Made by a program: the position numbers and the translations under genes. Below the pieces are notes generated by a model. The model was not told the DNA's origin, did not search any database, and was given only the letters and a program-made list of their open reading frames with translations. From NCBI RefSeq assembly GCF_044647545.1, contig NZ_CP172818.1: a DNA stretch of 64,000 nt; one strand, 5' to 3'. Shown piece by piece: positions 7,851-8,830 of this stretch (position 1 is its first letter; the number at the start of each line of letters is the position of its first letter). The stretch comes from Escherichia coli. Its GTDB lineage: Bacteria > Pseudomonadota > Gammaproteobacteria > Enterobacterales > Enterobacteriaceae.

Positions 7851-8001
7851 ATTTGATCCTCGTTATTATCAACCGCGGGCCTACCTTACCTGATTGCGCA
7901 TTCACAACGCTTTCAGAAAAGTCCATAAAGCCGCGATGAACCTCAGTTAAGAAAATTATGGTCTACACTGAAAATTACATCGAATTCTAATGGGGGATCA
8001 T

Positions 8002-8331
8002 ATGTTTAACCGACCGAACCGCAACGACGTTGATGATGGCGTGCAGGATATCCAGAATGATGTCAATCAATTAGCTGACAGTCTCGAATCTGTATTGAAG
8101 TCCTGGGGCAGCGACGCCAAAGGGGAAGCCGAAGCCGCTCGTAGTAAAGCGCAGGCTCTACTGAAAGAAACCAGGGCGCGGATGCATGGTCGTACTCGCG
8201 TCCAGCAAGCCGCGCGCGATGCCGTTGGCTGCGCGGATTCTTTTGTTCGTGAAAGACCCTGGTGTAGTGTGGGTACAGCGGCAGCGGTGGGTATTTTTAT
8301 CGGCGCACTGTTAAGCATGCGCAAATCGTAG
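8002..8331 (+). CDS. ygaM: ElaB/YgaM/YqjD-family membrane-anchored ribosome-associated protein
   Basis: ORF track frame 7990..8331; start placed at ATG 8002 with GGGGGA RBS at 7992-7997; C-terminal transmembrane anchor. Confidence 0.88.
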   Translation: MFNRPNRNDVDDGVQDIQNDVNQLADSLESVLKSWGSDAKGEAEAARSKAQALLKETRARMHGRTRVQQAARDAVGCADSFVRERPWCSVGTAAAVGIFIGALLSMRKS

Positions 8332-8362
8332 TGCAAAAATGATAATAAATACGCGTCTTTGA

Positions 8363-8390
8363 CCCCGAAGCCTGGCTTCGGGGTTTCTTC
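8363..8390 (+). terminator. rho-independent terminator after ygaM
   Basis: ccccgaagcc-tg-gcttcgggg hairpin followed by TTTCTTC. Confidence 0.65.
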
Positions 8391-8584
8391 ATTATGCCCG
8401 GCAAAAAAACACAAAAATCCCCTACCCCGTTGAGCCATTCATCGGTGGCGTAATCAATCTAAAATTCCCATATCTTGTGTGGTTGAATCTTTTTTCAACT
8501 ACATCTAGTATCTCTGTATCAACAGAGAGACAACCCGACGCGTATCATCGCGCCGTATCTTCATTTTAAACGGAAATACGAATC

Positions 8585-8830
8585 ATGCGCATTACTATTT
8601 ACACTCGTAACGATTGCGTTCAGTGCCACGCCACCAAACGGGCGATGGAAAACCGGGGCTTTGATTTTGAAATGATTAATGTCGATCGCGTTCCTGAAGC
8701 GGCAGAAGCGCTGCGTGCTCAGGGCTTTCGTCAGTTGCCGGTTGTGATTGCAGGCGATCTTAGCTGGTCTGGTTTCCGCCCGGACATGATCAATCGTCTG
8801 CATCCAGCGCCACACGCGGCCAGTGCATGA
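8585..8830 (+). CDS. nrdH: glutaredoxin-like protein NrdH
   Basis: ORF track 8585..8830, 81 aa; CVQC redox motif; first gene of nrdHIEF. Confidence 0.96.

Follow-up and report, generated by a model that had tools for sequence, protein, structure and literature searches.

The window analysed here is a 64,000-nucleotide (64-kb) stretch of Escherichia coli DNA, in which the span 8391-8584 separates ygaM, its upstream neighbour, from nrdH, which encodes a glutaredoxin-like protein and is the first gene of nrdHIEF; on the 3' side of this control region the gene order is nrdH, nrdI, nrdE, nrdF and proV (Table 1). Of 5,426 complete E. coli genomes searched by megablast, 5,421 contain the stretch, where it is annotated as ygaM / nrdH / nrdI. 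The span is the already known, experimentally characterised promoter-operator of the Escherichia nrdHIEF operon, i.e. of a backup ribonucleotide reductase. No new biology of nrdHIEF control follows from the analysis. What may be of use to the specialist is the dimorphic Fur stretch together with the left half of NrdR box 1, the conserved stem at 8536-8555, and the start-codon block that is conserved at synonymous sites under a Fur peak.

Table 1. Features in and around the nrdHIEF control region (positions in the window; a dot marks features without an assigned strand)
Feature	Position	Strand	Details
ygaM	7990-8331	+	upstream neighbour of the nrdHIEF control region
Best Fur-consensus match nearby	8335-8353	.	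AAAAATGATAATAAATACG, 13/19
ygaM intrinsic terminator	8361-8385	+	11-bp G+C-rich stem, then T-run; strong
Equivalent of K-12 Fur peak P87 (iron-replete)	8433-8467	.	overlaps NrdR box 1 by 3 bp
NrdR box 1	8465-8480	.	TTCCCATATCTTGTGT (K-12: TTGCTATATATTGTGT); 6/6 conserved positions
-35 hexamer TTGAAT	8483-8488	+	inside the NrdR linker; GGTTGAA highly conserved
NrdR box 2	8496-8511	.	CAACTACATCTAGTAT; 6/6 conserved positions; overlaps the -10
-10 hexamer TAGTAT	8506-8511	+	17 bp after the -35
Palindrome TCTCTGT-ATCA-ACAGAGA	8511-8528	.	perfect 7-4-7; -7..+11 around the inferred start
Inferred transcription start A	8518	+	7 nt after the -10; 5' UTR of 67 nt
5'-UTR stem-loop CGACGCG-TATCAT-CGCGCCG	8536-8555	+	7 pairs, one A.C mismatch; G+C-rich
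Nearly invariant block	8560-8605	+	last ~25 nt of the 5' UTR, start codon, nrdH codons 2-7
Equivalents of K-12 Fur peaks P88 / P89	8583-8612 / 8593-8601		at the nrdH start codon
nrdH (glutaredoxin-like protein)	8585-8830	+	first gene of nrdHIEF

No base distinguishes the window from K-12 MG1655 between position 8470 and a point past the nrdH start, an interval that takes in NrdR box 2, the linker, the -35 and -10 hexamers, the palindrome and the whole 5' UTR, and the segment 8470-8590 is identical or nearly so in most of the 5,421 E. coli genomes. This near-identity within the species is compatible with constraint, and it is also expected at such divergence. The segment 8390-8470 exists in two sharply divergent E. 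coli haplotypes, while the DNA on either side of it is identical. The type found in the window is common to E2348/69, DLL7555 and Escherichia sp. E1V33, and K-12 carries the other type. Both the Fur peak P87 and, with three positions, the left half of box 1 fall within the dimorphic segment. Strain-to-strain differences in the Fur-dependent induction of nrdH have been reported (PMC10164565), and the dimorphism might contribute to them.

NrdR boxes and the promoter they enclose

The nrdHIEF operon is repressed by Fur and NrdR (PMC2892513, PMC12176259), and its membership in both regulons (PMC12176259, PMC2892513, PMC10164565) agrees with the earlier note, which had placed it under these two regulators. 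In K-12, a 57-bp fragment with the sequence ACTAT-TTGCTATATATTGTGT-GGTTGAATCTTTTTT-CAACTACATCTAGTAT-CTCTG is bound by ATP/dATP-loaded NrdR with a KD of about 138 nM as determined by MST (PMC12176259, Rozman Grinberg et al. 2025). We mapped this fragment onto the window to set the coordinates of the two boxes, which are separated by a linker of 15 bp (8481-8495). NrdR boxes are described as 16-bp, partially palindromic sequences with conserved C4, A6, A8, T9, T11 and G13 (bioRxiv 10.64898/2026.05.11.724285). The operator of K-12 and its counterpart in the window occupy the same locus, share the same architecture and satisfy all six of these positions; box 1 differs between the two strains at three positions, none of them among the conserved six.

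If a pair is defined by a linker of 15-16 bp (31-32 bp from start to start), the 64-kb window contains no 6/6 pair other than boxes 1 and 2, against a chance expectation of 0.011; 6/6 cores taken singly occur often (19, vs 16.4 expected). For the analysis of conservation we used 81 sequences, namely the window and 80 Enterobacteriaceae species. Among them the score of 6/6 is retained by box 1 in 77 and by box 2 in 80, the geometry of the pair is fixed, and ACTACATCTAGTAT in box 2 is nearly invariant. The pair lies in the promoter of a ribonucleotide reductase operon and is conserved among the relatives. An nrdHIEF NrdR operator of this kind, with two boxes and a 15-bp linker, was reportedly described by Rodionov and Gelfand in 2005 and by Torrents et al. 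in 2007. Judged by its sequence, the interval 8465-8511 is the NrdR operator of the window, the binding having been measured on the K-12 version only.

Two strings that the earlier note had singled out beside the palindrome, cttgtgtgg and acatctagtat, are indeed present, each one base away from where they had been placed (8474-8482 and 8501-8511, respectively). A second inverted repeat, TGTGGTTGAA-TCTTTT-TTCAACTACA (10 bp with one mismatch, 8478-8503), connects the inner halves of both boxes across the linker, with the -35 hexamer inside it; it is partly explained by the fact that NrdR boxes are themselves palindromic.

The promoter that we assign to nrdH, TTGAAT-17-TAGTAT, matches the consensus at 8 of 12 positions and is weak; our promoter scan did not list it because 8/12 lies below the threshold of 9/12. 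The -10 hexamer TAGTAT was located upstream of nrdH in 81/81 sequences, and in this set all columns of ATCTAGTAT but one, which stands at 90% or more, are invariant. A promoter with a score of 9/12, which the scan listed at 8519-8548, was rejected as the main one, since its -10 lies in the variable, non-conserved loop of the 5'-UTR stem.

From the geometry of the promoter, transcription would start at A8518, and this position receives indirect support from Salmonella. The functional Fur box of Salmonella nrdHIEF has been reported at -309 (PMC2892513, Panosa et al. 2010), and in S. enterica diarizonae the best match to the Fur consensus (14/19) stops exactly 309 bp before the position equivalent to A8518, as it should if the start lies 7 nt after the -10. 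The Kim 2012 supplement contains no entry for nrdH and no coordinate near the start site, and the promoter name "nrdHp" is absent from the searchable literature.

According to PMC8561392, IscR activates nrdHIEF via a type II site with the -35 embedded in it, and the dependence on IscR published there fits a promoter as weak as 8/12. Type II sites are characterised by symmetric CCxYA half-sites and A/T-rich flanks, with the -35 embedded in the right half. In the window, TGTGG (8478-8482, a half-site of the TRxGG form) followed by TTGAAT fits the right half, while the left half is weak by eye; the TTGAAT hexamer and the TGTGG directly upstream of it are both present and conserved. For an NrdR linker, the interval 8481-8495 shows unusual conservation, which presumably reflects the -35 and the IscR site that it carries. 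An IscR site overlapping the -35 of nrdHIEF is also said to have been described by Martin and Imlay in 2011.

Fur sites around the promoter

Regulation of nrdHIEF by Fur reportedly goes back to the work of Vassinova and Kozyrev in 2000. We scanned for Fur sites with three motif forms: the 19-bp consensus GATAATGATAATCATTATC, a 7-1-7 motif and the ChIP-exo motif. Among the matches listed, no match to the consensus of at least 10/19 falls between 8360 and 8571, and none falls on the palindrome. The best match nearby (13/19) is located outside the span 8391-8584, between the stop codon of ygaM and the terminator, at -183..-165 from the inferred start. It is one of 21 position-strands with at least 13/19 in the 64 kb, and it is identical in K-12, where it lies under no Fur ChIP-exo peak. 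Other local matches reach 11/19, at 8572-8590 and, at the edge of the span, at 8581-8599. An Rfam scan of 8250-8700, an interval that includes the palindrome, with E-values up to 10 returned only two sub-threshold chance matches, to MicA (E 0.24) and to a plant snoRNA (E 1.8); the former is a MicA-like match on the minus strand at the spot of the 13/19 Fur match and is probably due to chance.

Three Fur ChIP-exo peaks have been reported at nrdH in K-12, namely P87 at 2798593-2798627, P88 at 2798743-2798772 and P89 at 2798753-2798761 (PMC10164565 Dataset 2). These peaks stand in older MG1655 coordinates, and we shifted them by +1978 to NC_000913.3, where nrdH is at 2800723. The offset is based on what we take to be the nrdH start in the old version. 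None of the three peaks covers 8511-8528. P87 falls inside the span 8391-8584, so there is Fur occupancy in K-12 for the span, without the palindrome, and the corresponding stretch of the window has only weak similarity to the Fur consensus (8/13). Thus nrdHIEF belongs to the Fur regulon, and the occupancy observed in K-12 adjoins NrdR box 1 and the start codon. The earlier note, which had recognised no convincing Fur box by eye, had supposed that the operator may be degenerate or may overlap the neighbouring elements, and P87 at 8433-8467, with its poor consensus and its overlap with box 1, corresponds to this description. In strain E2348/69 the 8-mer CGTAATCA has been designated a Fur box (PMC3458845). 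It occurs in the window at 8449-8456, inside the equivalent of P87; over these 80 bp upstream the window carries the E2348/69-type haplotype with CGTAATCA, unlike K-12.

The Salmonella Fur box at -309 is situated in the coding sequence of ygaM (GCTGAAGATAATGTTTATC, 14/19; positions 807-825 of the S. enterica diarizonae sequence L012), whereas no comparable match is found among the top Fur-consensus matches of the K-12 upstream region. The functional Fur operator of nrdHIEF may have moved between the genera. The Escherichia codons homologous to the Salmonella box look degenerate by eye.

Taken jointly, these elements are in our opinion quite probably those of the known nrdHIEF promoter controlled by NrdR, IscR and Fur, with the palindrome lying incidentally beside the operators. 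An ATP/dATP-loaded NrdR tetramer would bind the two boxes, and as these flank and overlap the weak sigma-70 promoter, its binding would occlude RNA polymerase. IscR would activate from the type II site overlapping the -35. Fur would bind at two places, one in the degenerate sequence that immediately precedes box 1 (8433-8467) and the other at the start codon of nrdH (8583-8612), and the palindrome would lie outside all NrdR, IscR and Fur operators.

An inverted repeat confined to Escherichia

The most conspicuous element of the span is an inverted repeat that the earlier note had described as a "perfect 6-4-6" palindrome about 60 bp upstream of nrdH. The string tctctg-tatcaa-cagaga lies exactly at 8511-8528, and its right arm ends 57 bp before the ATG at 8585, in agreement with that description. 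The repeat is also perfect, but its size had been misjudged: the string as written is a 6-6-6, and the longest perfect form is 7-4-7. With one mismatch it extends to 10-4-10 (8508-8531, i.e. -10..+14). Both arms are low-complexity runs of (CT)n and (AG)n, a composition that makes complementarity easier to obtain. The window contains 54 perfect 7-bp inverted repeats with loops of 3-8 nt, which amounts to 0.16 per 194 bp, and in Markov-1 simulations of 194 bp a 6-bp repeat arose in 23%, a 7-bp repeat in 6.6% and a 10-bp repeat with one mismatch in 3.0% of cases. The palindrome is thus real but only marginally beyond chance (3-7%).

Comparison of the species reveals that the palindrome is present only in Escherichia. 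Outside the genus, the best repeat of this kind that the homologous 32 nt can form reaches a stem of only 2-4 bp in 75 of 75 Enterobacteriaceae sequences (shuffle p 0.2-1.0), column conservation falls directly after TAGTAT, and across the species only 42% of the cells of the putative helix are paired, with no covariation. The 7-4-7 form is common to E. coli and two further Escherichia species. In E. coli DLL7555 (L084, 67-90) the substitution G8529T turns it into a perfect 10-4-10; in E. albertii (L006, about 1124-1147) five differences within 8516-8531 produce a different perfect 10-4-10, TATCTCTCTG-GTAA-CAGAGAGATA, with the centre shifted by 1 bp; and in E. whittamii T8513A breaks the repeat.

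These variants could be taken to mean that the palindrome is the operator of a dimeric protein restricted to Escherichia, which from -7..+11 would block open-complex formation or promoter escape. We regard this as unlikely, although the 7-4-7 symmetry is perfect and centred on the inferred start, its centre at +2 is a classic position for a repressor, and as single-stranded DNA the sequence folds into a hairpin of -7.3 kcal/mol (z -3.7). Perfect symmetry is moreover attained in E. albertii despite five differences within 16 bp, and in DLL7555 by a single perfecting substitution. Such a site is nevertheless missing from 75/75 sequences that keep the rest of the promoter, it is broken in E. whittamii, it has no further copy in the window better than 3 mismatches, and its sequence has zero matches in the searchable literature; the low-complexity arms make a chance or templated origin easy. 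The shifted centre and changed arms of E. albertii also fit poorly to one sequence-specific protein. Of the consensuses compared with it by eye, i.e. those of LexA, FNR, CRP, MntR, NsrR, GntR-type regulators and DnaA, none is known to fit the palindrome; the LexA site, CTG-N10-CAG, differs in spacing from the CTG-N6-CAG found here. Selection for symmetry by an Escherichia-specific binder at +2 appears improbable to us, and we would give distinctly little credence to the proposal that the palindrome acts as a true operator, or as a cruciform sensitive to supercoiling, and that its perfect forms in E. albertii and DLL7555 reflect selection for symmetry. If this were true, the Mn-dependent ribonucleotide reductase would be under an additional control peculiar to the genus.

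A mutational origin of the palindrome is suggested by the close outgroups (Citrobacter relatives), which read ...TCTGTATCAAGACACACACAACCC at the homologous place. Four substitutions, one of them G>C and the others C>G, set Escherichia apart from them in and just before the (AC)n run, and through these the right arm is able to pair with the left. When templates are switched or strands slip at a quasi-palindrome, its low-complexity arms acquire clustered, symmetry-creating changes, and quasi-palindromes have reportedly been recognised as template-switch mutation hotspots in E. coli, by Ripley in 1982 and by the Lovett laboratory. Like those hotspots, the element described here is an imperfect inverted repeat with symmetry-perfecting variants (DLL7555 and E. 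albertii); unlike them, it has in E. whittamii a change that breaks the symmetry, and the comparison spans a handful of lineages. In the ancestor of Escherichia a templated or slippage-type multi-base change probably converted the ancestral (AC)n run into (AG)n. The palindrome is most likely an incidental, lineage-specific quasi-palindrome of (CT)n/(AG)n runs and probably has no function of its own.

The stability of the stem as single-stranded DNA could also suggest an RNA hairpin at or close to the 5' end of a transcript that begins farther upstream or reads through from ygaM, and whose stability or processing the hairpin would affect; E. coli mRNAs are known to gain stability from structures of this kind at their 5' ends. 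This seems very unlikely to us. The -10 ends at 8511 and the inferred start at 8518 falls in the loop, so the palindrome straddles the start, its left arm is untranscribed and an RNA hairpin is impossible from this start; from 8518 onwards the 5' UTR folds no more stably than its shuffles (z 0.18), the ygaM terminator is strong, and the low pairing across species mentioned above speaks against a conserved helix.

The remaining proposal, made in the earlier note, was that the palindrome and the strings beside it resemble halves of NrdR boxes, or that the palindrome is a degenerate Fur operator or an additional NrdR box. That nrdHIEF is repressed by both proteins and that the palindrome adjoins NrdR box 2 lent it some appeal, and with respect to the flanking strings it was right, since these are the 3' portions of boxes 1 and 2. 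For the palindrome itself it is hardly credible. All 16-mers overlapping it score 0-4 of 6 NrdR positions, and a third box with the canonical start at 8527-8528 is not among the 16-mers with at least 4/6. The fragment bound by NrdR holds only 5 nt of the palindrome, as flank (PMC12176259). As a Fur box it was rejected likewise: it contains no consensus match (of at least 10/19, among the matches listed), it lies outside the K-12 ChIP-exo peaks at 8433-8467 and 8583-8612, and it is absent beyond Escherichia, e.g. from Salmonella, where both NrdR boxes and Fur control are kept. The earlier note had proposed matrix scans as a check of its reading; in our scans the NrdR sites coincide with the half-sites that it had flagged, while the Fur sites lie at other places and the palindrome lacks conservation. 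The comparison is instructive as a calibration: the conspicuous palindrome is not the regulatory element, while the inconspicuous, degenerate boxes beside it are the validated NrdR operator.

The leader stem and the start-codon block

Downstream of the palindrome the 5' UTR contains the stem-loop 8536-8555, with a U-rich stretch directly 3' of the stem. In about 80 Enterobacteriaceae 78.9% of its cells are paired, a value that drops to 8-52% on sliding the partner columns; double changes occur in five of the seven pairs, and the covariation is above that in 500/500 shuffles. The frequent U-G variants favour a stem in the sense-strand RNA. At this place 72 of 81 species can form a hairpin with -5 kcal/mol or better, and some genera (Atlantibacter, L047/L081; L035) have unrelated sequence there that still forms a hairpin. 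RNAalifold, applied to two alignments of the 81 species, returned no consensus structure and did not call the stem. A leader attenuator and an mRNA stabiliser are possibilities for its role.

The block 8560-8605 is nearly invariant in the 81 sequences, and its invariance includes synonymous sites. It overlaps the equivalents of the Fur peaks P88/P89 and a Fur match of 11-12/19 (8581-8599 and its homologues). The block could represent a start-codon-proximal Fur operator, an sRNA target or a constraint on translation initiation. The fraction of major codons in nrdH is 0.87 for codons 2-8 vs 0.62 for codons 9-72.
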